In this document: piece by piece, positions 46,611-63,306 of the stretch
Layout: the number at the start of each line of letters is the position of its first letter
How positions within the stretch are numbered: the stretch's first letter is position 1
DNA from: Candidatus Saccharimonadales bacterium
GTDB lineage: Bacteria > Patescibacteriota > Saccharimonadia > Saccharimonadales > UBA10212
Length of the DNA: 64,000 nucleotides
Reading direction: 5' to 3'
NCBI GenBank assembly: GCA_035717985.1
Contig: DASTHW010000016.1
Span: 1,859-65,858 of the forward strand
Notes under the pieces: generated by a model
Seen by the model: the letters and a program-made list of their open reading frames with translations, nothing else
What the model was told of the DNA's origin: nothing
The model's database searches: none
Position numbers and translations under genes: made by a program

Positions 46611-49235
46611 ATGAGTGGATTTATGCAGCGATTAAATAGGGGTAAAACCAGCGGCCAGGCCAGGCAGGAAGAAGTCCTGCTTATGCTGGAGGTTCCACGG
46701 ACCAACGACAAGAAGGAGCTGGCGGCCGAACAGATGCTAGCCGCCCTGCACGGAATACTGAGGCCAAAGCGCGAACTTCGGGCCAGCGGTAGCATGCAGG
46801 AGCATATCAGCCTGGAGATAGTAGCCATGGCTCAGCGCATTAGATTTTATATTTGGACGCCCCGGCATCTGCAAGCTTTCGTAGAAGGCCAGATTTACGC
46901 TCAGTACCCAACGCTTCAGATTCACGAGCAGACTGAGGATTATTCACAACGTAAGCTCCACCAAACCGTAATCCACACTTCTGAACTCGAATTAACAGAT
47001 AATGAAACTTTGCCGATTAAGACCTTTCCCAGCTTTGAAGTTGACCCGCTGGCCGCCATCACGGCAACTTTAGCGAAACTGGATAAAGAAGATGAAGAAA
47101 TGTGGATTCAGATCTTAGCGCGGCCAATCCCGGATGATTGGCACCGCAAAGGTCAGCGCATGGCCAGCCGCATTAAAGGGGGCAGGGGACTGCTGGGCGG
47201 CAGTGGCTCGCTAGGTTACATTGGCGAGGCTATTGCCGCCCTAGCTAGGCCGCCTCAAGCCGGTGCCGCCAAGCCGGAATTATCAGAAAGGGACAAATCC
47301 CGTGTCTCAGCCATAGAAGAGAAGAGCAATAAACTAGGTTACCGGGTTAAGATTCGCTTGCTCTATGCCGGACACGACCAACACACCGCCCGCCTGCGCA
47401 TGCAGGCTCTTGTTGGCACCTTTAAGCAATTTAATACCACCAACCTAAATGGTTTTAAGGCCGCCCGCGCCAGCTTTAACCGCGAAAAACAGATTGAATT
47501 TGAGACCCGCTTTTTTATTGATAACGGCTTTATCTTAAACATTGAAGAGCTAGCCAGCCTGTTCCATTTGCCGCATACCACAGTAGAGACGCCCAATATC
47601 GTCTGGTCAACTACCAAAACGGCCGAGCCGCCGCCAAATGTACCGATTTTAGTCAAAGGCCAGGAAGACGAAATCAGCTTGCTGGGAGTGACTAATTTTC
47701 GCGGTGACAATACGGTCTTTGGTCTCCGGCGGGAGGACCGCGGCCGCCACACATACATTCTGGGTCAAACCGGCACTGGTAAATCCGGCGTGCTAGAGCT
47801 ACTCACCATATCTGATATTTATTACGATCAGGGCTTTGCTGTCATCGATCCGCACGGGGATTATGCCCAACACGTGCTGACTTTTATACCTAAGCGTCGG
47901 TTGGACGACGTCGTTTACTTTAACCCGGCTGACACCGAGCATCCTATCGGCTTTAACCCGCTAGAGATTACTGATAAGACCCTAAAGGGCCACATCAGTT
48001 CAGAGATGGTTGGTGTTCTCAAGCGGCTGTTTGCCGAGAGCTGGGGACCACGCCTGGAATACATACTGCGTTATAGTTTGCTGGCTCTGCTTGATTATCC
48101 TAATTCAACCCTGCTAGATATTACCCGGCTTTTGACAGATAAGAAATTCCGAGCCCAGGTCATAAAGTATATCGACGACCCGGTAGTTAAAAACTTCTGG
48201 GTAACCGAATTTGCCAGCTGGAATGATAAATTTGCCTCCGAGGCCGTAGCACCAGTGCTCAACAAAGTTGGCGCCTTCACAGCCAATCCTATGATTAGAA
48301 ATATTATCGGCCAGCCCAAGAGCACCTTTAACCTTCGGAAAATTATGGATGAAGGCAAAATTTTAGTGGTAAACCTTAGCCGCGGGTTAATGGGGGAGGA
48401 CAATGCCGGGATCCTAGGCGCCATGATGGTGACAAAAATACAACTGGCGGCCATGGGCAGGGCAGACCTGCCGGAAGCTAAGCGCCGGCCGTTTTACCTC
48501 TATGTAGACGAGTTTCAAAACTTTGCTACCGACTCATTTGCCACAATTTTGTCAGAGGCCCGCAAATACGCCCTTAACCTAACCGTTGCCAATCAATACA
48601 TTTCGCAGATGGCGGAACCGGTCCGTGATGCCGTATTTGGCAATGTCGGGACAATAATGAGCTTTCGGGTCAGCCCCGATGACGCACCGTTTTTACAAAA
48701 ATACTTTGAGCCGCAGTTCGAGGCGGCTGATTTAATCCAACAGCATTCACGCTATTTCTTTTTAAGTATGATTATTGACGGTGAAAAGGCCCCGCCGTTT
48801 TCAGCCAAGACTCTAAACTTGCCGGAGGCACCGGAAGACCTTACTACTGAGATAATTAAGCTATCGCGCGATAAATATTCCGGCGATCTGGCTAGCGTCG
48901 AGGCTATGATTAGACGTAATACATTGTCCGGCAATGAATCGATCGCTGAGCCGCCGCCTCAGCAGAAACTTCCTAGCCCCAGTCACCGAGTTGGCCGGAT
49001 GGCTACCAGCCTAGTTCAGACCGGCATTATTGATAAAGTTGAGACATATAAAGAGTCCTCTCCAGACGGCACAGATCCTGCACCCGTTAAAAAGAAACGT
49101 ACCCGCCGCGGTGGCCGAGGCAGAAAGAAACAGCCTATCAGCCTGCCTACGCCAGAAGCTGTTCGGGCTAAGCAGGCGCCGGAAACGGTTAGCAAAGACG
49201 CTGATAGCGACGAATTTGTAATTCATCTGCGTTAA
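46611..49235 (+). CDS. large P-loop NTPase of the TraD/VirD4/TrwB coupling-protein-like (DUF87/HerA-related) type
   Basis: 874 aa with Walker A ILGQTGTGKSG, Walker B FYLYVDEFQNF, and a basic C-terminal tail (KKKRTRRGGRGRKK). No TM segments noted. Confidence 0.7.
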   Translation: MSGFMQRLNRGKTSGQARQEEVLLMLEVPRTNDKKELAAEQMLAALHGILRPKRELRASGSMQEHISLEIVAMAQRIRFYIWTPRHLQAFVEGQIYAQYPTLQIHEQTEDYSQRKLHQTVIHTSELELTDNETLPIKTFPSFEVDPLAAITATLAKLDKEDEEMWIQILARPIPDDWHRKGQRMASRIKGGRGLLGGSGSLGYIGEAIAALARPPQAGAAKPELSERDKSRVSAIEEKSNKLGYRVKIRLLYAGHDQHTARLRMQALVGTFKQFNTTNLNGFKAARASFNREKQIEFETRFFIDNGFILNIEELASLFHLPHTTVETPNIVWSTTKTAEPPPNVPILVKGQEDEISLLGVTNFRGDNTVFGLRREDRGRHTYILGQTGTGKSGVLELLTISDIYYDQGFAVIDPHGDYAQHVLTFIPKRRLDDVVYFNPADTEHPIGFNPLEITDKTLKGHISSEMVGVLKRLFAESWGPRLEYILRYSLLALLDYPNSTLLDITRLLTDKKFRAQVIKYIDDPVVKNFWVTEFASWNDKFASEAVAPVLNKVGAFTANPMIRNIIGQPKSTFNLRKIMDEGKILVVNLSRGLMGEDNAGILGAMMVTKIQLAAMGRADLPEAKRRPFYLYVDEFQNFATDSFATILSEARKYALNLTVANQYISQMAEPVRDAVFGNVGTIMSFRVSPDDAPFLQKYFEPQFEAADLIQQHSRYFFLSMIIDGEKAPPFSAKTLNLPEAPEDLTTEIIKLSRDKYSGDLASVEAMIRRNTLSGNESIAEPPPQQKLPSPSHRVGRMATSLVQTGIIDKVETYKESSPDGTDPAPVKKKRTRRGGRGRKKQPISLPTPEAVRAKQAPETVSKDADSDEFVIHLR

Positions 49236-49504
49236 AGCGATTTATAAACCATCAGGGCATTCCCTATTGCAGGCTCTCTGCACTGATGGCTCTATAAAAA
49301 TGCTAAGGAATGCAAGCCGAACGTTTTACGAACATGGTAGACTACGTCTGGATTTTCAGCAAGGCCAACCCGAAAGGCAATTTGCCATGCGGGCAAGGAA
49401 ACAAATAGATAGTTTAATAAAAAAATAAATTAAAAAATTAGAAGTGGAGCAGAAAAATCTTAGTGAAACGCGGGAGGGTAAAGCAAATTCCAGCCATAGA
49501 CTAT

Positions 49505-49532
49505 ACGTCGCACAATGTATATTTTGCGACTT
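49505..49532. other. candidate dif-like Xer recombination site
   Basis: acgtcgcacaa-tgtata-ttttgcgactt. The 11-nt arms match at 9 of 11 as an inverted repeat (core 9-mers at 8 of 9). The 6-nt spacer is identical to the E. coli dif centre TGTATA. It lies in the AT-rich gap where plus-strand and minus-strand gene blocks converge. Confidence 0.4.
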
Positions 49533-50110
49533 ACTATAAGGAGCTCAGGTTGATTAACTATCCCCCTGGCATAAGGGGACTTCTACTAAGACTCCGCCAA
49601 TTATTGGCAATTATTTGTTCTGCCTTGCGTATTATTCCTTGGTTTATTCCTCAGCCTGCCTAGACTGTCTTGTAAAGTCACCTAAAGTTATCCACAGCTT
49701 TATTCAGTTCGACTGTTTGCTTTTTTCCACTTTCATATTTTTATATATTTTTCCCCTTTTCTGCCCGATTATATTTATTATTTCACATTTAGCTAAACTA
49801 CACCTGGCTCCCTGCTCTAACGGCCAGTTAATTAAAAACGCTTAACTGAACAAATAGCGAACTAGAGCGGGTAATGCACTTATCTAAGTTATTAAATAGA
49901 GATAATTACTAATATTATGTCGTTACTATATGTCATTTGTTTCTGTCCTCTCTTTTAGCTACACTTGCTTCAGCCCTTGCCCCGCTGGTAACAATGTCGG
50001 CTAGAAAAAAAACGAAATAGTGAATTTAATTGTTCATGCACAGGCTAGACCACTAATAACACCTTACGAAATACTGACTGCACACTGTTATCCACGGCTG
50101 TGATTATTGT

Positions 50111-50890
50111 TCAACTAGCCAGCTTTTTGGCTAAAAATTGGGCATTTTCGACAGCTTTGGCACTTTTATCATTGTTGAAATAGCCGTAGACAGCTTTACA
50201 ATCACCGGTGTTATTTTTAATAAAACTGGCCCATTTAGATAACTCTTTATCAGAATAAGAGTCGGCATATAGACGCTTAGCCCCATGCCAGCGCAGATAT
50301 GCAAAGTCGGCCGTTACTCTGCAATCAGTCGGCCAAATATCCGGCGCACTATTAATGACGAAGGCTATATTTAGAGAACTCAAAAGTGCAAATATTTTAT
50401 CCGTTATCCAGCTAGCATGGCGGCACTCTAGGGCGATAGGGAAAGCTTGGCCGTATCTGTTTTCTGCCTTTTTGAACTGCATGATTAAATTTACAACCTT
50501 CTCTTCACTAGCCGGAAAACTAGCCGGTAATTGTACTAAAACTACCGCAAATTTAGACTCCAAAAATCTAGCTCTTGAACAAAATAAATCAATGCCGTGG
50601 TTAGTTTGATCATCGGTCTTTAACCTTTTAATATGTGTTAAAAACCGGCTGAGTTTAACCGCAAATTTAAAGCCGTCCGGAGTCAACTTACGCCAGTTTT
50701 CAAAAGCTTTTTCGCTGGGCAAGCGGTAAAAACTGTTGTTAATCTCAACGGTCGGAAAATGCTCGGCGTAAAAACTAAGTTTCTCGGTATTTTGCATTTT
50801 TGGCGGATAAAAACGTTTGGCCCAATCTTTATATATCCAGCCGCTGGTACCAATTAAATATTTAGTCGAGGTGAGCGAGGACTTTTTCAA
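50111..50890 (-). CDS. DUF72 (UPF0759, YecE-like) protein
   Basis: GWIYKDWAKRFYPPKM ... LSFYAEHFPTVEINNSFY is characteristic of DUF72. It overlaps the ligD 3' end by 29 nt. Confidence 0.8.
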   Translation of the reverse strand: MKKSSLTSTKYLIGTSGWIYKDWAKRFYPPKMQNTEKLSFYAEHFPTVEINNSFYRLPSEKAFENWRKLTPDGFKFAVKLSRFLTHIKRLKTDDQTNHGIDLFCSRARFLESKFAVVLVQLPASFPASEEKVVNLIMQFKKAENRYGQAFPIALECRHASWITDKIFALLSSLNIAFVINSAPDIWPTDCRVTADFAYLRWHGAKRLYADSYSDKELSKWASFIKNNTGDCKAVYGYFNNDKSAKAVENAQFLAKKLAS

Positions 50891-53300
50891 TATCTATCCC
50901 CTTGCCTATCACCGGCTGCCAAATGTCACCAATATCCTTAAGCCTGCGGCCCATATTTTTAATGTTAAATTCAGCTGGGTTCAGTCGGCTATTAACTTCC
51001 TTCCAGTCGATAGGCGCAGAAACACTAGCAGACGGCGTAGGCCGCACACAGTAAGGTGCCGCCAAAGTCTGGCCTTTTCGATTTTGCAGATAATCTAAAT
51101 AAACCTTGCCCTGGCGCTTTTTAGGGCTCCGCTCTAGACTGGTTGTTTTAGGTAACCTCTGATGGACTAGGTTGGCAAGTAACTGAGCAAATTGTTTAGT
51201 CTGTTCGTAGTTATATTTTGCGGCCAGCGGAATATAAATATGAATACCAGTTTTACCCGAAGTTTTAGCTAAATTTACTATATTTAACTCCTTACATACT
51301 TGATTTACAGCTTTGGCCGCTTGAATAACTTCACTAAATGAAATTCTCTCTGGATCCAGGTCTATGACGCACCAATCCGGATTATCTAAGTGTTCTATCT
51401 TGGAGTTCCACGGATTAATTTCAATACAGCCTAATTGGACCATATATAGCAGGCTGTCCATGGAGTCGGCTACCAGATAATTGATATCTTTTTTATTCGA
51501 TTCAGAGTAAATAGCTTTAGTTTTTACCCAATCCGGCGGCGAATAATTAACATCCTTTTGGAAAAAAGAGTCGCCATCAATACCATTAGGCTGGCGCAGT
51601 AGCGAGTGAGGTCGATCTTTTATATAAGGTAGAATATATTCCCCTACATCTTGGTAATAGTTAACTAGATCGCCCTTTGTAGTACCGGCCGAGGGGAAGA
51701 AAATCTTATCTAAATGGCTAAAATCGACCCGGCTAGCCGGGTTTTTTTTAGCCGGTTTAGATGCTACCGCCTTCGTCTTTAAAGGCATTTCTCTAACAAC
51801 TTGTTTGGGCTTTTTATCGTCGCGCAGACCTTTAAAAATTGGCTGGCGCATATGACCGGTTGAAGTCCATTCGCTAAAAGAAACCTCACAGACCATAGAC
51901 GGCTTTAGCCAGTGGGCTGGTGCATTGGGTTTAAAACTTTCACTAAAAGGTGATTTAGAAACTTCCAGTTTTTCTAAGGACTGCCTTAGAAGTCTCAACT
52001 GCGACGAGGGGATACCGCCACCGGTGTGGCCAATGTAATGAAGGCGCCCGTCAGAGCCGTAAACACCCAAAATTAAAGCGCCAATATGTTTTCTCGAACC
52101 GCTGGGCTCGGTAAAGCCGCCAATTACCGCCTCTTGGCGTAGCTCCGTCTTAATCTTCAGCCACTGTTTACTGCGCCTCCCACAGTGATATTTGCTGTCA
52201 GCTTTTTTAGCGATAATACCTTCTAGATTTTGGCTTTTAGCCAGACTATAAAAATCATTGCCAGCACCATCTATATGGTCGCTATAGTGAATCAACCCGA
52301 CATTGCCAAGTTGAGCCAAAATTTCCTTTCGGCGGCTAAGCGGCAGGCCGGTTAAATCATGGCCATCACACCAAAGAATATCGAAGACGTAGTAAACTAG
52401 CTGGCCCTTTGGCGCCCTGCCGTAATCTTGTAGCCAGCCAAAGTTAGCCTTACCTTGAGCGTCTACGGCTACTACCTCACCGTCAAGCACTACTTTATGC
52501 TCAAGACGACGCAGTGACTCTAAAATTGGCTTATAGTGGCTAAAGCCATTACCCTGGCGTGAATAGAGGCGGGCCGAGCGGCCATCCCACTGACCCAGTG
52601 CCCGGTAGCCATCCCATTTAATCTCAAACAGCCACCCAACATCGTCAAATGGCTCATCAGTCAGCGTGGCTAACTGAGGCCTGACGTTTTTGGGCATACC
52701 TGCTTTGGGCGCAGACGATAAATCAATCTTATCCTGAGACAGCTCCTCTACCCTTCGGCCGCTAACAACAGATTGATCCTGGCCGGTTACATCGATATCA
52801 CCGGCATAGCGGTCCTTCTTTTTGACTAACAGCCAGGCATTATCCCCCATCGACGGACTTTTGATTAGACCAAATTCACCGTTTAATTTTTGACCTCTCA
52901 ACACAATGGTCAGTCGGCCGCGCTTTAACTGTTTTAAAAGGTATTCCTCCTTACTATCAGTTTTCTGCCGAGGCTCGTACGTGCCGCGGTCCCAAATAAT
53001 TACATTACCGGCACCGTAGCTTTTTTTAGGGATAACCCCTTCAAATTTTCGATAATCATAAGGGTGATCTTCAACCATCATAGCTAGCCTTTTATCGCTA
53101 GGATTTAGCGATGGGCCCTTGGGCACAGCCCAGCTTTTTAGCACGCCGCCCATCTCTAGGCGAAAATCATAATGCAGGTGGCTGGCGTGGTGCTTGTGAA
53201 CTACAAATTCTAGGCTAGCTGATTTTTCTTTACCCTTGGCCGGCGTGGGCTCTGGTGTTTTAGTAAAGTCGCGCAGGCTTTTATATCTAGTGAGGCTCAT
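50862..53300 (-). CDS. ligD: multidomain ATP-dependent DNA ligase LigD (phosphoesterase-ligase-polymerase order)
   Basis: N-terminal PE domain FVVHKHHASHLHYDFRLE. Adenylation motif EIKWDGYR (KxDG). C-terminal primase-polymerase domain (FPSAGTTKGDLVNYYQDV, LLRQPNGIDGDSFFQKD, IDLDP). Confidence 0.9.
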   Translation of the reverse strand: MSLTRYKSLRDFTKTPEPTPAKGKEKSASLEFVVHKHHASHLHYDFRLEMGGVLKSWAVPKGPSLNPSDKRLAMMVEDHPYDYRKFEGVIPKKSYGAGNVIIWDRGTYEPRQKTDSKEEYLLKQLKRGRLTIVLRGQKLNGEFGLIKSPSMGDNAWLLVKKKDRYAGDIDVTGQDQSVVSGRRVEELSQDKIDLSSAPKAGMPKNVRPQLATLTDEPFDDVGWLFEIKWDGYRALGQWDGRSARLYSRQGNGFSHYKPILESLRRLEHKVVLDGEVVAVDAQGKANFGWLQDYGRAPKGQLVYYVFDILWCDGHDLTGLPLSRRKEILAQLGNVGLIHYSDHIDGAGNDFYSLAKSQNLEGIIAKKADSKYHCGRRSKQWLKIKTELRQEAVIGGFTEPSGSRKHIGALILGVYGSDGRLHYIGHTGGGIPSSQLRLLRQSLEKLEVSKSPFSESFKPNAPAHWLKPSMVCEVSFSEWTSTGHMRQPIFKGLRDDKKPKQVVREMPLKTKAVASKPAKKNPASRVDFSHLDKIFFPSAGTTKGDLVNYYQDVGEYILPYIKDRPHSLLRQPNGIDGDSFFQKDVNYSPPDWVKTKAIYSESNKKDINYLVADSMDSLLYMVQLGCIEINPWNSKIEHLDNPDWCVIDLDPERISFSEVIQAAKAVNQVCKELNIVNLAKTSGKTGIHIYIPLAAKYNYEQTKQFAQLLANLVHQRLPKTTSLERSPKKRQGKVYLDYLQNRKGQTLAAPYCVRPTPSASVSAPIDWKEVNSRLNPAEFNIKNMGRRLKDIGDIWQPVIGKGIDIEKVLAHLD

Positions 53301-53309
53301 AAAAGACCC

Positions 53310-54080
53310 TTAAGCTTTTTGGGATTCAAGGCTAGCTTTGAGGGTGCTCATCAGGTCTTTAACCTTGGTCGGCCGAGGTTCAGAGCCATGAGTTTTGGGT
53401 TCATGGCCTTTGGCTTTTTGCTCAATAATTTCTTCTAGCTCTTCGGTATAAGTGTCATGCCAGTCTTCGGCTATAAACGGTTTGGTAAGCTGATCAATTA
53501 AAGCTAGGGCCATCTTTAGCTCCGCCTCACCTACTTCGCTGTCCGGTAAATTTAAATCAGTTGGCCGCCTGACATCAGCCGGAAAACGCATTTGATTTAG
53601 CACCAGCGCATGGCCGATTGGCTTAACAGCCCCCATATTATCCCGCGCCCGCATAGCGTACTTTACTAGGGCCACTTTGCCCGATTTTTTTAAAGCCTCA
53701 TGTAGGAGCCGGTAGGCTTGCTCTGCTCCCCTGCCCGGCTCTAAATAGTACGGCTTGTCATAATAGCGGCTGTCAATTTCTGACTCATCAGCAAATTGCC
53801 TAATTTCTAGGGTTTTCGTCTTCCGGGCGTCGGCTTTTTTAAAATCTTCACTACTAAGAGTTATGTAGTCGCCGTCTTGATATTCATATCCCTTAACAAT
53901 CTCGTCATAGGGGATTTCTTTGCCGTCACGGCGGCATATCCGGGCGTATCTTATGGGCGAAGAATCAGCTTTATGAAGCATGTGAAGATCCAGCCCGGCC
54001 CGGCTCTCACTGCCGCTATACATTTTGACCGGTATGTTAACTAAGCCAAAACCTATGGAACCTGTCCAAATTGCCCGCAA
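53310..54080 (-). CDS. ku: Ku DNA end-binding protein
   Basis: N-terminus RAIWTGSIGFGLVNIPVKMY. 256 aa with a TTG start about 10 nt after the SD aaggag. Confidence 0.9.
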   Translation of the reverse strand: MRAIWTGSIGFGLVNIPVKMYSGSESRAGLDLHMLHKADSSPIRYARICRRDGKEIPYDEIVKGYEYQDGDYITLSSEDFKKADARKTKTLEIRQFADESEIDSRYYDKPYYLEPGRGAEQAYRLLHEALKKSGKVALVKYAMRARDNMGAVKPIGHALVLNQMRFPADVRRPTDLNLPDSEVGEAELKMALALIDQLTKPFIAEDWHDTYTEELEEIIEQKAKGHEPKTHGSEPRPTKVKDLMSTLKASLESQKA

Positions 54081-54160
54081 GATTAATAATCTCCTTACTT
54101 CTTAAGAGTATAAGGATATAGGGACACTAAAACTGTTAACATCTTTACAGGTTGTTCTGG

Positions 54161-54745
54161 TTAAATTTCTGGCGGCCGGCCGGCAAGATGGATAAATTCT
54201 TCTACGAAGCCTTGCCGGCGCTCCCACCAGTAAGTTTTCAGGGCATCGAGTACCTTATTTAGGGCTTCTAGACCAATCTCCTCGGCATTGATGACAATGC
54301 TTTCAATGTCAATGTTTTCCATAGTTTCAATGGTCGTTTTATCATCTTCAAACAAATTGCGGGCTACCCTAAAGGCGGTGTCACCATCGGCCGCCAGGCC
54401 GGCCATAACAAATTCCCTAGCCTGCTCTCTTATCTGGGGGTTCGGATGAGCACTCATGCACTCCACTAATGCCGCCGCCTGGGCGGCACCGTCGCTAGAA
54501 GTGGTACGAAAGGCATAGGCTTCAATCAAATCATAAAAGCCTTGATCAGGATCATCCGCCTGACTATCAAAAGCGCCGGCGTAAGCATCAACCACCGGCC
54601 GCCAGTACTCGGGGCTTTTAGCGCCAACAAAAACCGCCAGAGGCGGTTTTTCAGTTTCACTTTGTCTCTGTTTTACATCGGCACCAGCAGTAAACTGGTG
54701 GGCTTCCATATCAGCAATATACTCCGCCCCTGGCGGTGATGACAA
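54161..54745 (-). CDS. hypothetical acidic protein, first large ORF of the Ku/LigD operon
   Basis: 194 aa, rich in D/E, with no motif recognised. The start is uncertain (TTG at 54745 or ATG at 54709). Confidence 0.5.
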   Translation of the reverse strand: MSSPPGAEYIADMEAHQFTAGADVKQRQSETEKPPLAVFVGAKSPEYWRPVVDAYAGAFDSQADDPDQGFYDLIEAYAFRTTSSDGAAQAAALVECMSAHPNPQIREQAREFVMAGLAADGDTAFRVARNLFEDDKTTIETMENIDIESIVINAEEIGLEALNKVLDALKTYWWERRQGFVEEFIHLAGRPPEI

Positions 54746-54767
54746 TAGTAATTCTTGTGCTTAAGTT

Positions 54768-54929
54768 TTAATCGTCGTTCGGATTCTCGGGCGCTTTGCC
54801 GCCCTCACGCCGGGCTTCGCTCAAGCCGACTGCAATGGCCTGCTTTTTATTCTTGAAGCGGCCTTGGTGTTTGTGCTCGTGCATTTTTTCTTCGACTTTC
54901 TTTTGAGCTTTTGGTCCATATTTAGCCAT
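54768..54929 (-). CDS. small basic protein, DUF6496-like (53 aa)
   Basis: Below the track cutoff. My translation: MAKYGPKAQKKVEEKMHEHKHQGRFKNKKQAIAVGLSEARREGGKAPENPNDD. The SD is gaaggaggg. Confidence 0.5.
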   Translation of the reverse strand: MAKYGPKAQKKVEEKMHEHKHQGRFKNKKQAIAVGLSEARREGGKAPENPNDD

Positions 54930-54993
54930 AATCTACCCTCCTTCGGCTACCAGTTTACAAGCCAATCCAGATAAGAGGCTGTTAAATTTTTGA

Positions 54994-55866
54994 TTATTTA
55001 TAGAATATCCGGCCGCTGACCCGTACATCCAAATACTGATCTGGCCGAATATTTTTTTGTTTAAAATCATTCCTAGCGGCCAAAAATTGGCCAATCTGAT
55101 CTTTAGGGTCGCCCGATAAGTAAAACTTAACCATGTAAGGCTGATCGGTGGTTCGAAGATCTAGCTCCTGAGGCGTATCGCTTAAGACTAGAGACTTTAT
55201 AGGCACGCCGCTTTTTTTGGATTGATTAATTAAATCGGTAATAAACAGTACGTTAGCCGTACTAAGAACTTGCTTACCCAGAGAAACTGGCAGGCCGGCA
55301 GAGTCAATGACTTCAGCCAGTTTAGCCCTTTGGTATAGGCTTTTAGGCCCCACTGCCCGGCCGTCGCTGTCAACTACGTACTCTTTGTCGCCACTTTTTA
55401 AGAAAAAGGCTGGCCCGGCAATAGACAGCCTTATGACCGGTTTGGAACTAAAAACCGGCAATTCCACACTAACGGCATTAACCTCCGGGTAGTCCCGCTT
55501 AAAATCGGCGGATAGACTGTTTTCATCAAAGGTGATTTTGGAGCGGTCGCGAAAAGTGCCTAGATAATTTCGAGCCGAATCTCTGTAATTAGTTAAAGAA
55601 TGATAAAAGGTGCTACCAGCAATTATTTTTGGTTGGGAATCCAAGGATAGGCTCTTTACCAAAATCACTACTAAGCCGGCAATCACAATTACATCGGCTG
55701 ATTTTATAAGCATTTTTTTAAAGCCGCTAGTCTTTTTTCTCTTTTTAACAAAGGGACTCGAGGTACTCGTCTGTCTGGCTCCGCTCTGGTAATAACCGCT
55801 GAGCGGCGGGCGCGGACTAGCACTCAGTCTATTTCTAGGCCGATTATTTGAACGTTTTTTCATCAT
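54994..55866 (-). CDS. FtsQ/DivIB-like cell division protein
   Basis: A basic N-terminus, one TM segment (VIVIAGLVVILV), then a POTRA-like region. Its position after murG in the dcw cluster supports the call. Confidence 0.65.
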   Translation of the reverse strand: MMKKRSNNRPRNRLSASPRPPLSGYYQSGARQTSTSSPFVKKRKKTSGFKKMLIKSADVIVIAGLVVILVKSLSLDSQPKIIAGSTFYHSLTNYRDSARNYLGTFRDRSKITFDENSLSADFKRDYPEVNAVSVELPVFSSKPVIRLSIAGPAFFLKSGDKEYVVDSDGRAVGPKSLYQRAKLAEVIDSAGLPVSLGKQVLSTANVLFITDLINQSKKSGVPIKSLVLSDTPQELDLRTTDQPYMVKFYLSGDPKDQIGQFLAARNDFKQKNIRPDQYLDVRVSGRIFYK

Positions 55867-57017
55867 TGCTCGGCTAACTTTAAAATTATTTTAGCTAGTT
55901 CCTGGCTGGCCCCCGGCTTAGCCAGGGCATGCAGGTTAGCGGCCAGCTCCGCCCGTCGGGAGCTGTCGGCTAAAAGTTCATTTATAACTCCGGTAAGCTC
56001 GTCAGCTGACAGCGATTCGCTAAGCACCACAGCGGCGTCTTTACCGGCTAGAGACTGGGCATTTTTTAATTGATGGCCACCGGCCAAAAACGGGCTGGGA
56101 ATGATTACGCAAGCTTTGGCTTGAGTAGCAAATTCGGCGATTGCCGTAGCACCGGCGCGGCTGATTATTAAGTCAGCCGCGCCGCTATATTCATATAGAT
56201 TAGTTACATAATCAAACACCTTCACTCGGTCAAGCTGGTCTTTTGGCAAAGCCTTATGATAACTGTGATCAACTTCTGATAAATGCTGAGCGCCGGTTAT
56301 GTGGGCAATGAAAATATCCGGATAGGCCGTAAGCAGATCTGGGGCTGAGGCTAAAAGTAGGTCGTTTAGCCTTTTAGAGCCATTGCCACCACCAGCCAGT
56401 AAAATCAGCCGGCTGGCTGGTGGCACACCTATCAACTGTTTATATTTTTCTTGGTCAGCTGAATTTACTAGCTGAACACTAGCGTTTAGTGGTATGCCCA
56501 CATAGCGGGCGCCGTGGGCCGGCATGCCAGAGGTCTTAACTGTCGCAAAGCGGCCGATTATCCGGTTAGCTAGGCCGCCGATAACATCAGAATCATGGGT
56601 GACTATGGGAATCCGCCTGAGACGGCCAGCTAGCCCTACCGGTACAGCCACAAAACCACCTTTCGAAAAAATTACGTCCGGCTGGGTGCGCGCTAAAATC
56701 CGGTAGGCCGAGCCTATCGATTTTAAAACTCTAAAAAAGTCGCGGATATTTAGGCCGATAGTCTTAAAATCGGTCAATTGACGCCAAAGTCTCTCGCCGT
56801 GGTAGCGCCTAAATTTGCCGGCGTTAATAAAAACCATAAAATCAAAATCGTGATTGCCGGCCCGCAGGCTGTCTACTTGGTCGCCCTTAAAGCCAATATA
56901 AATTATCTGGCAGTTAGGTTCTTTGGCTTTAAGTTCGCGGGCGAGTGACAAGAGAGGGGTTATGTGGCCGCCGGACCCTCCGCCCGTCAAAACTACCGCT
57001 GGAAATGGGTGCTTCAT
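55863..57017 (-). CDS. murG: UDP-N-acetylglucosamine--N-acetylmuramyl-(pentapeptide) pyrophosphoryl-undecaprenol N-acetylglucosamine transferase
   Basis: N-terminus VVLTGGGSGGHITP, GT28 architecture. Confidence 0.9.
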   Translation of the reverse strand: MKHPFPAVVLTGGGSGGHITPLLSLARELKAKEPNCQIIYIGFKGDQVDSLRAGNHDFDFMVFINAGKFRRYHGERLWRQLTDFKTIGLNIRDFFRVLKSIGSAYRILARTQPDVIFSKGGFVAVPVGLAGRLRRIPIVTHDSDVIGGLANRIIGRFATVKTSGMPAHGARYVGIPLNASVQLVNSADQEKYKQLIGVPPASRLILLAGGGNGSKRLNDLLLASAPDLLTAYPDIFIAHITGAQHLSEVDHSYHKALPKDQLDRVKVFDYVTNLYEYSGAADLIISRAGATAIAEFATQAKACVIIPSPFLAGGHQLKNAQSLAGKDAAVVLSESLSADELTGVINELLADSSRRAELAANLHALAKPGASQELAKIILKLAEQ

Positions 57018-58191
57018 CTGGGTTAATATCTGGCTCGATTACTCTGTAACTAGTATAACGTGAAACCTGGAAAACAATGCCCAGGGCGGCCGCCAGAAAG
57101 ACCAGGCTGGTGCTCCCCTGACTGATCAGCGGCAAAGTGATTCCCTTAAGCGGTAGCAGACCGACCATGGCTCCGACATTGATTATCATCTGGGTGCTGA
57201 ACCAAGCCAGCACTCCTACTACCATCAGTCGGCTAAATGGGTCAGCTGTGCGCTCGATGATTTTTTTGAGTCTAGTAATTAAGCCGCCGTAGATAACAAT
57301 TATCAAAAAACTGCCGATGAAGCCGAATTTCTCGGCCATGATAGCGAAAATCGAGTCGTTGGCTGGTTCCGGTAGATAGCCATAAGCCTGCACGCTATTA
57401 CCAAGCCCTAAGCCCAGCACGCCGCCGGAGCCTACTGAAATCAGCGCCTGACACTCCTGATAACCACTTCCCTGACAATTACTACCCGGATGTAGATAAG
57501 TAGCCAAGCGCTCCCGGCGGTACCCACTACTGGCTATCGCTAAAATTAGGATTACCAGCACGATGCCAGAAAACATGGCGATTTTTTTTAAGGGCAAACC
57601 AACCGAAAAAGCCGCCGCCCCAATCATAACAATCATGACGCCGGCCGAACCTAAGTCGCTTTGTAGTTTAGCCACCACCGCCGCCAGAATCAGTAGGAGT
57701 ATCAAAAGCGGCCTAATAGTGCGCTTAAAATCATTCAAGAGTCCCCGCCTCCATTGGGTGGTTAAAAAGGCCGCCAGCTGGACTAAAAGAGCCAGTTTTA
57801 TAAGCTCAGCCACCTGGAAGGAAAATCCGCCTAGCCGGATCCAGCGGTGGGCCGGATAATTGGCGTTAATCGGCGTCACCATAACAATCGCACAGCCGAT
57901 AATCGCTATCAGGCTAAGGGTCTTGGCGTGCTGGCGCCAAAAACTAATCGGTAAATGCGCGGCAATACCAAAACCAACTATTCCCAAAGCTACGGCAATC
58001 AACTGCTTGGTAATAAAATAGCTTTGGCTGACGTGCTGGTTGGCCGCTAGCCCCGGGCTAATCGAATAAACAACTACTAGGCCAATAGTCACTAACAGGC
58101 AGGATAAAACTAATAGCCAATGATCCGGCTTGTGGCGCCGGGCGCCAGCGACAGCTGATTCTATCGGGGAGCGTCTAGGGCGAGCATTCAA
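56929..58191 (-). CDS. ftsW: SEDS family peptidoglycan polymerase FtsW
   Basis: 420 aa with about 10 TM segments and family motifs (GGFSFQVAELIKL, PEPANDSIFA). The 3' end overlaps murG by 89 nt. Confidence 0.9.
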   Translation of the reverse strand: MNARPRRSPIESAVAGARRHKPDHWLLVLSCLLVTIGLVVVYSISPGLAANQHVSQSYFITKQLIAVALGIVGFGIAAHLPISFWRQHAKTLSLIAIIGCAIVMVTPINANYPAHRWIRLGGFSFQVAELIKLALLVQLAAFLTTQWRRGLLNDFKRTIRPLLILLLILAAVVAKLQSDLGSAGVMIVMIGAAAFSVGLPLKKIAMFSGIVLVILILAIASSGYRRERLATYLHPGSNCQGSGYQECQALISVGSGGVLGLGLGNSVQAYGYLPEPANDSIFAIMAEKFGFIGSFLIIVIYGGLITRLKKIIERTADPFSRLMVVGVLAWFSTQMIINVGAMVGLLPLKGITLPLISQGSTSLVFLAAALGIVFQVSRYTSYRVIEPDINPDEAPISSGSFDGRRVRRPHNPSLVTRPRT

Positions 58192-59228
58192 CTAAAGCCC
58201 CCTAGGACAAAAACGATTAGACCGATGAAGGCGGCTACCTCGCCGAGTACCCAAAAGCGCATAGTCACTTTAGTCTCTGGCCAGCCTAGCGCCTCAAAAT
58301 GGTGATGTATCGGGCTAGATAAGAAAATTTTCTTGCCTTGGCGCATTTTTTTGCTGGCAATTTGGATAATTACCGAGCCGGTCTCAACCACAAAAACCAG
58401 GCCAATAATCGGCAAAAGCAAAACCGTATTGGTTAACATGGCCACGACACCAAGTGCCGTTCCAAGGGCAAACGAGCCCACGTCCCCCATAAAAAAACGC
58501 GCCGGATAGATATTGAACCACGTGTAAGATAGCAGTGTGCCGACAATAGTCATGCAAAAACCGGATAGAGCGTACTTTTTTTCAATCAAACTAATGACAG
58601 CGTAAGCCCCAAAGGCAATGACGCTTAGCCCCCCGGCTAAGCCATCCAGCCCGTCAGAAATATTAACGGCGTTAGCCGTGGCGTAGACTACCAATATAAA
58701 TAACGGAATAATCCAAAGCCCGATATGCCAGGTGTGATAAAACGGGATATGCAAGCTGTCAAAGCCGAGTTTGTCATAAAACCACCAGCCGCCAATCAAA
58801 GCAATAATAAACAGGAGCAAGGATTTCATTTTGGCGCGCATGCCGGCAATACCGCCGCCGATACCGCGCACATTGATAACATCGTCAATTAGGCCGATGG
58901 CGCCGGCGCCGGCCATAGCGGCCATCGGTAGCCAGGTTTCCGACCGCACCAGATTGCCAGGTAAAGTCACGATGGCGGTCGCTAGAACAAAAATAATGCC
59001 GGCCATCGTCGGGATATTGCGGGTATGTTTGGCGGCGTGCAGTTTTTGATAAACCGTAGCTTTCTCGCCAGTCACAGTAGTCGTACGGGCTCGCTTCCAC
59101 CATTTACCAGAGAAAGCGGCGGCTGTATAGAGCGGTGTCAGCGCCATGGCCGCCACAAAACTAAGGAATGCAAAAATAAAAATTTGTTCGATAGTATGCG
59201 AGCTGGCGGAAATTTGTAAACTGCTCAT
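58188..59228 (-). CDS. mraY: phospho-N-acetylmuramoyl-pentapeptide-transferase
   Basis: NAVNISDGLDGLAGG, MGDVGSFALG and SPIHHHFE. Confidence 0.95.
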   Translation of the reverse strand: MSSLQISASSHTIEQIFIFAFLSFVAAMALTPLYTAAAFSGKWWKRARTTTVTGEKATVYQKLHAAKHTRNIPTMAGIIFVLATAIVTLPGNLVRSETWLPMAAMAGAGAIGLIDDVINVRGIGGGIAGMRAKMKSLLLFIIALIGGWWFYDKLGFDSLHIPFYHTWHIGLWIIPLFILVVYATANAVNISDGLDGLAGGLSVIAFGAYAVISLIEKKYALSGFCMTIVGTLLSYTWFNIYPARFFMGDVGSFALGTALGVVAMLTNTVLLLPIIGLVFVVETGSVIIQIASKKMRQGKKIFLSSPIHHHFEALGWPETKVTMRFWVLGEVAAFIGLIVFVLGGFS

Positions 59229-59262
59229 GTCTGTTTTGGCTAAGCCCTCATATTATACCAGC

Positions 59263-61059
59263 TTATGAGCCGGTTTTGGGTGTTACGTTATAGTCATTTA
59301 TGAGCATATGCGCCAGGTCGGAAAATAGCGGCATAGCGGCCGTGGTTCCGGCGTAGCCGCCGATGTGCGGCTGGTGAATAGCCACCATGATGACATACTG
59401 AGGCTTGTCGCCGCCAACATAGCCGATAAAGGTTCCGTTAAAGCGATCATCGTAGTAGCCGCCGGCCGGACTGGCAATTTGGGCGGTGCCGGTCTTGCCG
59501 CCGACCATGTAGCCAGCCGGGAACCGCATATACGGGAACCCCTGCTCTACTTTGGTTTGGACTACACCCACCATTAAATTTGCCAGCTCCTGGCCGACTT
59601 TTGGCGAGGCAACATCGCGGCGGACTACCCTTGGTTTTATGGTGGTAACCGAACCATCAGGATTAGTAATTTGATCAACCAGCCGTGGCTTATAGTAAGT
59701 GCCACCGTTTAATACCGAGGACAGAGCCGCCGCCATCTGCAGTGGCGTGGCCGTCATAGCCTGACCAAAAGCAGTGTTAGCATATGTCAGCTGTAGTCCG
59801 TAGCCGCTGTCAGGCGGCGGTACGTAGCCGCCGGATTCATAGCCTTGGTCTATGCCGGTTAGCTTGCCGAATTGATAATGATTAACCATGTAGTCATGCC
59901 AGGCATCGCGGGCTTTTTGATTTACTACGCCGGTCTGGTGGCCCATCTGCATTAGCTCCCAAGTGGCGCCGGTATTCATCGATAGGTTCAAAAGTTTGGC
60001 TATACTGCTGGGGCCGGCGCCGCCGTCTTCTTCCACATTTTTAACAATTGAACCATCCAGCTTCCACTGGCCGGGGTCATAAAAAGTGGTGTCCGGCGTA
60101 ATCACGCCTTGGTCAAGAGCGGCCGCCGTAGTTAGAGTCTTCATAATCGAGCCCGGCTCAAACGGATCACTGACGGCGGCATTATTAAAGATGCCCGGAT
60201 TAGTAACTTTATAAAACTGCGACGGATCATAGGTTGGATAATTGGCCATAGCCTTCACCGCCCCGGTATTGATATCCATTATCAGGGCGCTACCCAGCTG
60301 GCTTTTAGCGTGTTTTACGTCTTGGGCTAGATAAGTCTCCAGCTGTTTCTGCATGCCCATATCAATTGTCAAAACCACGTCATCACCGGATTTAGGCGCA
60401 ATTTGGATATTGCCGGGGCTAGCGGCCAGCGGTACGCCATTTACATCAGTAATGGCCTTCAACATGCCGGGGGTACCGGCCAGCTGTTTATTTAAAGCCT
60501 GTTCAACCCCGTAGGTACCCACTCCGTTATCATTGACGAAGCCAAGTAGCTGAGAAGCCAAATCACCGTCCGGGTAAGTCCGGTAGTCCTGGCCCTGCGT
60601 ACCGATGCCGGCCAACTTGAGAGATGTTATTTTGTCGCTCTGGGATTGGCTGAGCCTTTTACCGAGTACTACATAGCGGGTGTTTTTGGTCTTTAGTTGG
60701 CCGGTATATTTGTCGGCGCTACCGCCAATGATCTTAGCAATTTTCTGGCCGTCGCCATCAGCATTCTTGACCAGCGTCGGGTCGCCGTAGAGAGTATAAA
60801 GTTTTTGATTTAAAACTATCGGAACAATTCCGCCAGCAGAATGAGCCGAGATCGTGCCTCGATCCGCTGGGATGGAGTACTGCCGGAGCTGGTCAGCCAG
60901 CGCCGCCCTTTGATAATAATCATGTTTGACAATTTGTATCCAAAACAGGCGCCCGACAATAACAGCACAAATAAAAAGCAAGGTGCCATACCACAGATAT
61001 AACCGATGGTTGGCGCTAGTCTTCGAGCCTCTTTCACGGCGTGCTTCACTGCCAAACAT
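59263..61059 (-). CDS. ftsI: class B penicillin-binding protein (FtsI-type transpeptidase)
   Basis: SxxK (GSIMKT), SxN (LSMNTG) and KTGT (GGKTGTAQ), with an N-terminal TM anchor. Confidence 0.9.
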   Translation of the reverse strand: MFGSEARRERGSKTSANHRLYLWYGTLLFICAVIVGRLFWIQIVKHDYYQRAALADQLRQYSIPADRGTISAHSAGGIVPIVLNQKLYTLYGDPTLVKNADGDGQKIAKIIGGSADKYTGQLKTKNTRYVVLGKRLSQSQSDKITSLKLAGIGTQGQDYRTYPDGDLASQLLGFVNDNGVGTYGVEQALNKQLAGTPGMLKAITDVNGVPLAASPGNIQIAPKSGDDVVLTIDMGMQKQLETYLAQDVKHAKSQLGSALIMDINTGAVKAMANYPTYDPSQFYKVTNPGIFNNAAVSDPFEPGSIMKTLTTAAALDQGVITPDTTFYDPGQWKLDGSIVKNVEEDGGAGPSSIAKLLNLSMNTGATWELMQMGHQTGVVNQKARDAWHDYMVNHYQFGKLTGIDQGYESGGYVPPPDSGYGLQLTYANTAFGQAMTATPLQMAAALSSVLNGGTYYKPRLVDQITNPDGSVTTIKPRVVRRDVASPKVGQELANLMVGVVQTKVEQGFPYMRFPAGYMVGGKTGTAQIASPAGGYYDDRFNGTFIGYVGGDKPQYVIMVAIHQPHIGGYAGTTAAMPLFSDLAHMLINDYNVTPKTGS

Positions 61060-61065
61060 TACTCA

Positions 61066-61413
61066 TTACTGGCTAATTACTCCCGAAGGCGTAACGCTGA
61101 CCAGATTCTTAGCCGTTTGGCTGGAGGCCACCCGGTCTAGAGACTGCAAGCGAGCGGCGGCCACTTCTAAACTGGCTTTTTCGTTTTTGAGATTGGTTTG
61201 TTGTTCTTGCAAAGCATTAATAGTATACCCAAAGCCGTTGGTTTTGGTCACCTGTGTTAAATACAGCAGGCCGACCAGACAAGCCAGGATGATCAAAATA
61301 ATCGTGTTGCTGACAGGCCCTAGCGATCGGGCTGAGCTAATGAACGTAACGGAGTTTTGATTGCGCTTTAGGCCGCCTCGGCGGCTCATGGCGACGGAAC
61401 TAGAATATGTCAT
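61066..61413 (-). CDS. FtsL-like septum formation protein
   Basis: 115 aa with one TM segment (IILIILACLVGLLYL) followed by a coiled-coil-like segment. It sits between rsmH and ftsI. Confidence 0.5.
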   Translation of the reverse strand: MTYSSSVAMSRRGGLKRNQNSVTFISSARSLGPVSNTIILIILACLVGLLYLTQVTKTNGFGYTINALQEQQTNLKNEKASLEVAAARLQSLDRVASSQTAKNLVSVTPSGVISQ

Positions 61414-61575
61414 ATTTTTGTTTTATTTTGGTACTTATTTTTGTGGTGGCGGCGCTTTTTATTAGGGCCGAGCGCCGCCATGCTTTTAATCCTTATCTAG
61501 GGGCCTACTCGGACTTGAACCCTATATGCCCTAGGATTTTTGTACTTTACCGTTATCGGCATTAAAAGTACCGTC

Positions 61576-62490
61576 TTAACCCTTTCTTTTTGTTTTTATT
61601 TTTGCGGCGGCTCGCAGTTTAGCACTACGGGCACGCGGATTGGAAACTATTTCTTGAGCCTTAGGCGTCAGTGGTTTTTTGGTCAATGTCAGAAGTTCAG
61701 CATCATATCGGTCGCCAGCGTGCTCGGCAAAGAATCGCTTAACTAGCCGGTCTTCCAGACTGTGAAAGCTGATGACAGCCAGCCGTCCGCCGGGGGCTAT
61801 CAGCTCTAGCCAAAGTGGTAAAGCCTGCTCTAGCTGATTAAGCTCGTCGTTAACAGCTATCCGCAGAGCTTGAAAGGTTTTGGTGGCTGGGTGAATTTTG
61901 CGGCGGCCAAACCGCCTGGGGCTTGCGCCTTCAATCACCTGTGCCAGCTCTAGCGTTGAGCTTAGGGGTCTAGCCTCGACTATTGCCTTGGCAATTCGGC
62001 CGGCTCTTGGCTCTTGCCCAAACCTGCTGATTATGTCGGCTAGTTCGGCCTGGCTGGATTTGTTAACCAGCGCGTAAGCGGTTAAGCTCTGCCGCTGATC
62101 CATTCGCATATCCAGCGGTCCTTCCCTGCCAAACGAAAAACCTCTGCCCGGTTCGTTAAGGTGCGGTGAACTTGTGCCCAAATCTGCCAAAACCATATCA
62201 AAGCGCCTTTCCTCCTCTACCAGCCGCCGGCTGGCCGATAAAAAATCGGCGTGCACTATATCGGCAGTGGTAAAGACGGCCCGCAGGCTGGAAATAGCCT
62301 GCTCGTCGCGGTCTACTAAAACCACGGCGGACAATTTACCGGCCGCGGCTCTAATGGCCGAGGCGTGGCCTCCGTAACCGGCAGTTAAATCCAGATAGGT
62401 TTCGCCGGCCTTCGGTGAAAGGCAAGCTATGACCTCGCTGGTCATTACCGGTTGATGCTTTGGCGCCTGCATTTGTTTTTGTTTTGGCAT
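61576..62490 (-). CDS. rsmH: 16S rRNA (cytosine1402-N4)-methyltransferase
   Basis: HQPVMTSEV, DLTAGYGGHA, DLGTSSPHL and FHSLEDR. Confidence 0.95.
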   Translation of the reverse strand: MPKQKQMQAPKHQPVMTSEVIACLSPKAGETYLDLTAGYGGHASAIRAAAGKLSAVVLVDRDEQAISSLRAVFTTADIVHADFLSASRRLVEEERRFDMVLADLGTSSPHLNEPGRGFSFGREGPLDMRMDQRQSLTAYALVNKSSQAELADIISRFGQEPRAGRIAKAIVEARPLSSTLELAQVIEGASPRRFGRRKIHPATKTFQALRIAVNDELNQLEQALPLWLELIAPGGRLAVISFHSLEDRLVKRFFAEHAGDRYDAELLTLTKKPLTPKAQEIVSNPRARSAKLRAAAKIKTKRKG

Positions 62491-62527
62491 TTTTGTTTTT
62501 GTTAGCAGGGGTTTCCCTGCCTTGCAA

Positions 62528-62765: not shown

Positions 62766-62840
62766 TCTGAGTAATGAGACCTTTGATTCACTAATTGGCG
62801 GTTTTCGAGCACTTAATTGTTAAATTACTAAGCCTATAAA

Positions 62841-63197: not shown

Positions 63198-63259
63198 AAT
63201 CTCTTCTATAATTACCTTGCTATTTTTTTGTTTTGTGGTGGGGGTTAGCTGTTTTGGCT

Positions 63260-63306
63260 ACCCACTTTTACCCACTGCTGTCACTATACAACCCACTTTT
63301 ACCCAC
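63260..63306 (-). promoter_or_regulatory. putative MraZ operator: four GTGGGT boxes in two identical 16-nt units
   Basis: acccacttttacccac occurs at 63260-63275 and again at 63291-63306. On the coding strand this reads GTGGGTAAAAGTGGGT, so the boxes are 10 nt apart. Confidence 0.6.

Follow-up and report, generated by a model that had tools for sequence, protein, structure and literature searches.

A probable dif site of the Xer recombination system in a Candidatus Saccharimonadales chromosome and its recurrence across the candidate phyla radiation

The dif sites and the Xer recombinases that act on them form a near-universal housekeeping system, so that the presence of such a site in a saccharibacterium is to be expected and is not in itself surprising. 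The stretch analyzed here (the window) comprises 64,000 nucleotides of a contig (DASTHW010000016.1) from a Candidatus Saccharimonadales bacterium, and its subject is a 28-bp near-palindrome at window positions 49505 to 49532 that is very probably the dif site of this chromosome, i.e., the target of Xer-family tyrosine recombinases near the replication terminus. The reference case, Escherichia coli dif (GGTGCGCATAATGTATATTATGTTAAAT), occurs as a single copy in 5220 of 5426 complete E. coli genomes. In archaea, dif is served by a single recombinase, XerA, independently of FtsK (Cortez et al. 2010, PMC2958812); xer and dif constitute an adjacent module in some archaeal lineages and lie apart in others (PMC5357621), and conserved AT-rich flanks have been reported for the dif sites of Thermococcales. 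Single recombinases with a site near their own gene are also found in the difH/XerH systems of Helicobacter and Campylobacter and the difSL/XerS systems of streptococci and lactococci, with difSL, at 31 bp, being atypical (PMC5357621). Xer systems are in turn exploited by integrative mobile elements exploiting Xer (IMEX), such as CTXphi, VGJphi, and TLCphi of Vibrio (PMC5357621). The published criteria for a dif site are a 28-bp sequence with an 11-6-11 layout, inner-arm complementarity (more than four pairs between positions 7-12 and 17-22; Kono et al. 2011, PMC3025954), a single copy, conservation, an intergenic location, a position at the shift point of the skew, and a Xer recombinase. In the literature that we searched, we found no work linking the candidate phyla radiation (CPR), Patescibacteria, or Saccharibacteria with dif or Xer and no published account of a CPR-wide dif or of its use by phages.

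The site and its parts, read directly from the sequence of the window, are as follows.

49505-49532, plus strand: 28-bp dif-type core site, ACGTCGCACAA-TGTATA-TTTTGCGACTT, scoring 44.5 bits with a position matrix
49505-49515, plus strand: left arm (family consensus AYGTCGCACAA), more strongly conserved than the right arm and kept in hybrid sites
49516-49521, plus strand: 6-bp central region TGTATA (family TRTAYM), the presumed region of strand exchange and the most variable part of the 28-mer
49522-49532, plus strand: right arm (family consensus TTTTRCGACAT), a near inverted copy of the left arm

The window site has the 28-bp 11-6-11 layout, the inner-arm complementarity, the conservation among relatives, and the intergenic position named in the published criteria. 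Its arms are complementary at 9 of 11 positions, and direct reading bears out the palindrome, its extent, and its arm matches as they were given in an earlier note on this DNA. The same holds for that note's observations that the spacer is identical to the core of E. coli dif (as seen against GGTGCGCATAATGTATATTATGTTAAAT) and that CGCAnAA and TTnTG are common to the arms of both, the inner-arm bases being identical. Between positions 7-12 and 17-22, five of six possible pairs are formed (C7-G22, A8-T21, A10-T19, A11-T18, and T12-A17), which is more than the four set by Kono et al. The right arm displays a conserved asymmetry in the form of a T where a perfect palindrome requires a G (at core position 18, the chromosomal sites described below have T in 123 cases, A in 22, and G in 10), and with a mean complementarity of 7.5 of 9 in these sites the two arms are nearly identical. 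The site is intergenic, lying inside an 875-bp gap (49236-50110). The position matrix retrieved it as the single match in the 64-kb window, the next, unrelated one scoring 12.1 bits. That note had also cautioned that palindromes of this kind arise by chance, and rightly so: there are 23 palindromes of the 11-6-11 type with at least 9 of 11 matches in the window versus 8.3 ± 2.5 in shuffled sequences, and the site is the only one of the 23 with a TGTATA/TATACA spacer. The palindrome alone is hence no better than chance, and it is conservation that raises the site above it.

This conservation is already evident among the closest relatives. In two genomes whose homolog of the DUF87 protein encoded to the left of the site (see below) is about 80% identical, the 28-mer is retained at 27 and 26 of 28 positions, and one of the two has an additional gene between the DUF87 gene and the site. 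We scanned 80 metagenome loci anchored on the DUF87 gene (35 to 86% protein identity) with the position matrix and recovered exactly one site per locus in 35 of them (24 to 47 bits), 0.2 to 6.6 kb downstream of the gene and almost always in the same orientation; in the loci without a site, the best score was about 16 bits. An alignment of 36 distinct flanks revealed a 24-bp core, GTCGCACAA-TrTATn-TTTTrCGAC, that is 80 to 99% conserved, with the flanks at 70% or less. Across 31 distinct variants, G3, T4, C5, G6, A10, A11, and G24 never change, and variation is greatest in the central region. In about 35 Saccharimonadales genomes, the 28-mer forms a sharply bounded conserved island that occurs once per locus.

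A few features of these loci deserve mention in their own right. About 185 bp to the left of the site, the sequence GAACGTTTTACGAACA (49318-49333) resembles the site's right arm, TTTTACGAC. The two closest relatives have it unchanged, it is about 60 to 70% conserved in the alignment of 36 flanks, and a direct motif count found it in only 9 of 64 loci; it could represent a degenerate half-site or the 3' terminus of the DUF87 transcript. In locus L106, an inverted copy of the right half is found at about position 4258, roughly 220 bp from the full site at 4481. The weakest site of the set (L033, 11604-11631; 24 bits) has a conserved left half and a diverged right half and is located 23 bp short of the end of its contig; 5.9 kb away is the gene of an accessory integrase with a sparse distribution (recombinase at 4621-5715), and this site may be the junction of another integrated element.

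Beyond the Saccharimonadales, we scanned one genome per species with the degenerate pattern GTCGYAYAATRYANNTTNTRMGAC, for which about 17 chance matches are expected in the whole collection. At least 120 matches were recovered, every one in a different assembly, with one site apiece, a distribution that indicates one copy per genome. The matches listed include Saccharibacteria, Paceibacterota, Minisyncoccia, and Woese-, Shapiro-, Uhr-, Falkow-, Magasanik-, Yanofsky-, Nomura-, Campbell-, and Moraniibacteria, along with a few archaeal metagenome-assembled genomes (MAGs) and Proteobacteria-labelled MAGs with CPR-like neighboring genes. They agree with each other even at the N positions of the pattern. 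In a set of 152 distinct sequences, information content is elevated across exactly 28 bp, AY-GTCGCACAA-TRTAYM-TTTTRCGAC-AT, and at background outside, a profile that is partly inflated by the method of collection and agrees with that of the pattern-free set of 31 variants. None of the roughly 156 loci contains more than one copy of the site.

Some of the genomes recovered carry labels at odds with the remainder. The CPR-type site is present in 14 MAGs labelled Gammaproteobacteria, Pseudomonadales, or Bdellovibrionales (L091, L099, L106, L120, L126, L130, L140, L158, L170, L171, L174, L177, L203, and L204), at least eight of which (L120, L126, L130, L140, L158, L174, L203, and L204) have neighbor clusters common to Woese-, Shapiro-, and Paceibacteria loci, namely, YebC/DUF5656 or M23 peptidase/GltX; the taxonomic labels of these MAGs are probably wrong. 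Among archaea, three Poseidoniaceae MAGs (marine group II; L089, L104, and L201) carry GTCGCATAATGTATGTTATrCGAC, and a MAG labelled Methanomicrobia (L109) has a perfectly palindromic site (2598-2621) that is 16 bp from a XerA-type gene (2637-3464) whose product passes the curated XerA cutoff. The same dif type may be common to some archaea.

Across loci, gene orientation and nucleotide skew around the site point to a terminus. In the 156 loci, the nearest genes are convergent in 87, tandem in 28, and divergent in just 5, the coding-strand bias amounts to +0.80 to the left of the site and -0.73 to its right, and the site falls within an open reading frame (ORF) of at least 90 codons in only 7. 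As these counts are inflated by shared synteny, we restricted a second count to 63 loci of unrelated context, which gave 24 convergent and 3 divergent neighbor pairs. In the unrelated-context loci, the GC skew is +0.072 to the left and -0.042 to the right, the left value exceeds the right in 29 of 33 (p = 8e-6), and a replication-side effect of 0.025 ± 0.007 persists after control for gene strand. This switch from positive to negative skew, together with gene convergence, is the polarity of a terminus and the opposite of that of an origin. The near-complete contigs with the site (776, 830, and 914 kb) are drafts with arbitrary starts and give no distance between site and origin.

The site is also linked to genes for the expected enzymes. 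The chromosomal loci, about 1.5 Mb in all, contain only 12 tyrosine recombinase ORFs, of which 11 lie within 1.2 kb of the site, with a single xer gene beside it in each xer-linked locus. All 11 linked loci belong to lineages (CPR and archaeal) other than the Saccharibacteria; neither the window nor the Saccharibacteria-context loci have xer linked to the site. When six of the recombinases (including the one ORF away from any site) were compared with curated models, the best models were XerC, XerD, and XerA; three passed the NCBIfam XerA cutoff, and none reached the XerC/XerD equivalog cutoffs (about 250 bits versus 330 to 335). For a site-linked recombinase (L172), the closest solved structure by sequence is E. 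coli XerD (1e-39), followed by archaeal XerA (7e-30), with XerH far behind (4e-12). The other neighbors in the xer-linked lineages are housekeeping genes coding for GltX, an M23 peptidase, YebC, and ribosomal protein L9, as identified with Pfam, and for GyrA and SecA, as recognized by sequence inspection. The near identity of the arms and the three recombinases beyond the XerA cutoff make a single-recombinase system plausible at the sequence level. Two candidates for the Xer of the Saccharimonadales themselves were rejected, namely, the L033 recombinase, which has only 123 homologs and looks like an accessory integrase, and a XerD-like match that comes from an unrelated organism with purine synthesis and hydrogenase genes.

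Further occurrences come from a viral contig collection, in which at least 120 stretches (L214 to L333) contain the site pattern. Thirteen of these loci keep the right-hand neighbor typical of Saccharibacteria (a gene for a 290-amino-acid protein, with MurG next in three) and have a small element to the left of the site. The genes of these small elements code for a rolling-circle Rep (phrog_3419, 2e-14; Pfam REP_ORF2-G2P), a P-loop ATPase, a 400-amino-acid secreted protein, and small hydrophobic proteins; no tyrosine recombinase was found in these filamentous-phage-like elements. All five loci with sufficient left flank have a hybrid site 4.5 to 5.5 kb to the left of the full site and in direct orientation.

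L267: full site 1325-1352, hybrid site 6834-6861
L269: full site 2225-2252, hybrid site 7537-7564
L280: full site 5096-5123, hybrid site 619-646
L311: full site 2209-2236, hybrid site 7732-7759
L314: full site 2193-2220, hybrid site 7606-7633

The hybrid and full sites are identical over 17 to 21 nt, corresponding to the left arm and the central region, and unrelated beyond, with the identity stopping at the central region or just past it (in L269, ACGTCGCACAATATACCTT followed by GTATTGCGT in one and ACGTCGCACAATATACCTT followed by TTACGACAT in the other). Full and hybrid sites around these elements mean that in Saccharibacteria the 28-mer is a place of site-specific recombination and that the crossover falls at the central region, and since the elements lack a recombinase of their own, a host enzyme is implied. 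Judged from their sequences, the inserted elements look like IMEX in CPR bacteria, and the junctions in the five loci record natural recombination events with the exchange at the central region.

At least 61 further loci of the collection are fragments of tailed phages, with genes for a large terminase (phrog_38, 1e-94), small terminase, portal, major head protein, primase, and helicase, and many of them derive from contigs of 40 to 50 kb. The site is upstream of the start of the large terminase gene in 63 of 63 cases, at a median distance of 907 bp, and is often within 10 bp of the small terminase gene. A typical arrangement is the following.

L262: site 12260-12283; large terminase gene 9425-10891, minus strand

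The phage variant of the site is more symmetric, having G and not T at core position 18 and an arm complementarity of 8.0 of 9 versus 7.5 of 9 in the chromosomal sites. Only two tyrosine recombinases were seen in the phage pieces, each of which covers at most about 15 kb of its contig, so that the tailed phages might still encode integrases elsewhere. The phage-borne site could serve Xer-dependent integration or multimer resolution.

Taken together, the dif architecture, the deep conservation of a single intergenic copy across the CPR, the polarity of a terminus, the linkage to xer genes, and the junctions at the central region make it very probable that the 28-mer is the dif site of this chromosome. 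The earlier note had read it as a dif-like site at a terminus, and conservation, convergence and skew in other loci, the xer linkage, and the integration events all lend this support. Recombinase protomers would bind the two 11-bp arms on each sister copy of the site, the two copies would synapse, and strand exchange would occur where the 6-bp central region meets the arms, with one added crossover resolving a dimer. Binding and catalysis would be carried out by the Xer protein of this organism, and dimer resolution would be the role of the site; a translocase might control the reaction, and either one or two recombinases might act in it.

Certain observations weigh against this conclusion. 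No gene for Xer (tyrosine recombinase), FtsK, or DnaA was found within the 64-kb window. About 20 of the DUF87-anchored loci with several kilobases of downstream flank carry no site, which means that the synteny is not universal. The site is also accompanied in Saccharibacteria by a conserved flank with a DnaA-box-like motif. Finally, the GC skew within the window is uninformative and does not switch at the site: minus-strand genes to its left and right show no difference in skew (p = 0.47; third codon positions, p = 0.84), and the extrema of the cumulative skew are at 5.4 and 58.9 kb. The local evidence for a terminus in this genome is the convergence of strands only.

The flank in question contains the following motif to the right of the site.

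49686-49697, plus strand: DnaA-box-like GTTATCCACAGC, including TTATCCACA at 49688-49696

The latter 9-mer, about 160 bp from the site, is a perfect match to the DnaA-box consensus, and a second copy with one mismatch, TTATCCACG, is located at 50088-50096. In 41 of 64 Saccharibacteria-context loci, versus 1 of 78 control windows, a DnaA-box-like motif is present no more than 500 bp from the site on its right side; it is 80 to 90% conserved and lies on the same strand, about 200 bp from the site, across loci. Further conserved noncoding islands follow past the box at about 49715-49726 and 49776-49792 (ATTTGnTTTTTT and ATATTTGACnTTTT). Searches of the gap yielded no known RNA at the Rfam gathering thresholds or at E values of 1 or less and no tRNA. 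An accessory or DnaA-binding site, a small RNA, and a small peptide gene are candidates for this flank motif.

That the region might instead be part of a replication origin or be otherwise under the control of DnaA is suggested by the two TTATCCAC motifs (the perfect box at 49688-49696 and the one-mismatch copy at 50088), by the conservation of the box in 41 of 64 related loci, and by the AT-rich character of the gap. An oriC is marked by a cluster of DnaA boxes, an AT-rich unwinding element, divergent genes, and a skew that changes from negative to positive, and this region has two box-like motifs, genes that converge on it over tens of kilobases, and, in other CPR loci, a skew that runs from positive to negative, the opposite of an origin; moreover, there is no dnaA in the 64 kb and no dnaN nearby. 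We consequently rejected an origin on the grounds of polarity and box number and assign it a negligible probability. The same negligible weight goes to a palindrome that arose by chance and has no function, an option that the 23 palindromes of equal quality in the window, versus about 8 expected from shuffles, would by themselves invite. It is refuted by the retention of 26 to 27 of 28 positions where the flanks diverge and by the recurrence of the site once per locus in more than 150 genomes.

Somewhat more substance attaches to the possibility that the 28-mer is an operator for a DNA-binding regulator or a bidirectional terminator between convergent operons, as might be expected of a palindrome in an intergenic gap with converging genes. 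Its RNA could form a 6-bp stem, and 18 bp downstream is the start codon (TTG at 49550) of a 37-codon ORF that has an AAGGAG ribosome-binding site. This small ORF (49550-49663) was nevertheless discarded as the target of an operator, because it is not conserved and displays indels and stops in the alignment of close relatives, and as the site is downstream of both neighbors in most loci, there is nothing there to regulate. Nor is there a promoter-like or terminator-like pattern on the site. No base of the stem varies, the symmetric positions that do vary show no covariation (Fisher p = 0.35) and many non-Watson-Crick combinations, and the predicted RNA fold is unexceptional (-8.7 kcal/mol, z = -1.2). 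Terminators are not conserved in sequence across phyla, and neither an operator nor a terminator would account for the hybrid sites around the inserted elements; we thus regard both as very unlikely. The strongest of the competing explanations, unlikely as we hold it to be, is that the 28-mer is a recombination target of a different kind, i.e., an attB used by mobile-element recombinases or a site acted on by a dedicated host recombinase other than Xer. Phages and the inovirus-like element do carry or use the site, the window has no xer gene, and phage-encoded integrases are conceivable, with at most about 15 kb of each phage contig covered. An attB would not be conserved for the benefit of parasites, whereas this site is kept across the superphylum, in housekeeping contexts and with the polarity of a terminus. 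Furthermore, the recombinase genes linked to it belong to the Xer family and sit amid housekeeping neighbors, and the integrated elements encode no tyrosine recombinase.

Within the window, the site separates two blocks of genes that run toward each other.

28061-49235, plus strand: gene block running into the site, with 17.8 kb of coding sequence on the plus strand and none on the minus strand
46611-49235, plus strand: gene for an 874-amino-acid DUF87/TrwB/type IV coupling protein (T4CP)-like ATPase, the left neighbor of the site
50111-54745, minus strand: variable cargo beside the site, with DUF72, LigD, Ku, and a 194-amino-acid ORF
54994-62490, minus strand: cell wall and division block (290-amino-acid protein, MurG, FtsW, MraY, PBP, and MraW), the conserved right-hand neighbor in 68 loci

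The strand layout described in the earlier note is correct, with 28061-49235 entirely on the plus strand and coding sequence from 50111 to 63795 exclusively on the minus strand. Its description of the surrounding gap as the only long gene-free one does not hold: when gaps are compared at ORFs of at least 120 codons, the 875 bp around the site (49236-50110) stand beside gaps of 1260 bp (34493-35752), 933 bp (62491-63423), and 728 bp. The plus-strand block ends with DprA, topoisomerase I, a Sigma70_r4/HARE-HTH protein, and the DUF87/T4CP-like ATPase, and its synteny is retained in relatives. The nearest homologs of this ATPase, among more than 7,500 found, are labelled Candidatus Saccharimonadales or Saccharibacteria, which places the window in a saccharibacterium (TM7), and its start as called differs by four codons from that of its database counterpart. 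Homologs of the VirD4-like T4CP are reported in a preprint to be widespread in CPR and mostly encoded apart from virB4, with which the DUF87 neighbor fits. In Saccharibacteria, this ATPase of the HerA/FtsK superfamily (DUF87/T4CP-like) and the conserved DnaA-box-like flank could be accessory parts of the dif system.

On the minus strand, the order of genes downstream of the site is DUF72, LigD, Ku, two ORFs without assignment, MurG, FtsW, MraY, PBP, and MraW. The two blocks converge likewise in relatives, and the genes between the site and the cell wall block vary; at the position of the cargo, relatives have MFS and ABC transporters, an aldo-keto reductase, a 2'-5' RNA ligase, and a cupredoxin. 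The GC content of the cargo is about 41% at the site-proximal end (49 to 52 kb) versus about 50% for the remaining window. A search of the window with the position matrix uncovered no degenerate second site or half-site scar around the DUF72-LigD-Ku cargo, and with no second site bounding it, the cargo bears no IMEX scar. The cargo genes at 50111-54080 code for DUF72, a full-length LigD (phosphoesterase, ligase, and primase-polymerase), and Ku, the latter two forming a complete nonhomologous end-joining pair in a saccharibacterium. The 290-amino-acid protein (54994-55866, minus strand) has no Pfam match and is the most constant neighbor of the site in Saccharibacteria (68 loci), with the 3' end of its gene about 440 bp from the site. 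It is encoded by the last gene of the MurG-FtsW-MraY-PBP block, a place held by FtsQ elsewhere in bacteria. Farther to the left, a 225-amino-acid MFS ORF (33815-35752 region) begins within a tRNA-Glu gene (33819-33893) and matches just the first half of the MFS profile, and may be truncated or misstarted; the 1.26-kb gap after it contains small Gly/Arg-rich ORFs on the minus strand (34628-34765 and 34790-35005).

The by-products of most interest are the pan-CPR consensus, the inovirus-like elements integrated at the site, and the large group of tailed phages that carry it. The consensus, AYGTCGCACAA-TRTAYM-TTTTRCGACAT, amounts to a one-line terminus marker for CPR genomes, most of which are MAGs, and would be useful in curating and orienting CPR assemblies. 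The integrated filamentous-phage-like elements and the tailed phages with the site bear on the practical problem of linking phages to CPR hosts. Saccharibacteria have recently been made genetically tractable (PMC10633639), and in them the site might be developed into a genetic tool, for example, for excision of a marker between two copies. More tentatively, the CPR and some archaea, such as the Poseidoniaceae, might have in common one near-palindromic dif type served by a single XerA-like recombinase, and the site would be a major point of entry or maintenance for CPR viruses, with small inoviruses integrating as IMEX and a large group of tailed phages of 40 to 50 kb, which carry a complete, more symmetric copy directly upstream of terS/terL, depending on the Xer of the host to integrate or to resolve multimers. 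We rate this whole scheme as possible yet rather doubtful; if true, it would add the first tailed-phage group of IMEX-like character and provide a sequence handle for assigning phages to CPR hosts. To our knowledge, no described type of IMEX includes tailed phages that carry a complete copy of the site.

Of the characterized systems, E. coli dif with XerC/XerD resembles the CPR site in its 28-bp length, 11-bp arms, central TGTATA, inner-arm CGCAnAA and TTnTG, and intergenic position, and probably in its single copy number and its place at the terminus; like E. coli dif, and as in those archaea where the two lie apart, the site of Saccharibacteria is not beside xer, and the site-linked CPR recombinase of L172 is nearest by sequence to E. 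coli XerD. The two sites are identical at 18 of 28 positions (6 of 11 in the left arm, 6 of 6 in the center, and 6 of 11 in the right arm). They differ in that the right arm of the CPR site is the inverted left arm, whereas that of E. coli is a distinct XerD-type arm, TTATGTTAAAT, and the linked CPR recombinases are below the XerC/XerD equivalog cutoffs. In archaeal dif/XerA, the 28-bp length is combined with nearly identical inverted arms, as in the CPR site; in addition, xer is beside the site in some CPR lineages, three of the scanned recombinases pass the XerA cutoff, and archaeal MAGs contain the same pattern, in one case (L109) with a XerA-type gene 16 bp away. The conserved AT-rich flanks of Thermococcales dif are a further parallel. 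The CPR site is unlike it in its bacterial host, in its conserved arm asymmetry, and in its separation from xer in Saccharibacteria. With difH/XerH and difSL/XerS, the site shares proximity to a recombinase gene in the 11 CPR and archaeal loci, but the tested CPR recombinase is much farther from XerH (4e-12) than from XerD (1e-39) and falls far under the cutoff of the XerS model. The integrated elements, for their part, are like the known IMEX in being small and filamentous-phage-like, with a G2P-type Rep, no recombinase of their own, and flanks formed by a full and a hybrid site. They differ from these in having Saccharibacteria as hosts and in being joined by tailed-phage contigs that bear a complete and more symmetric copy of the site by their terminase genes.

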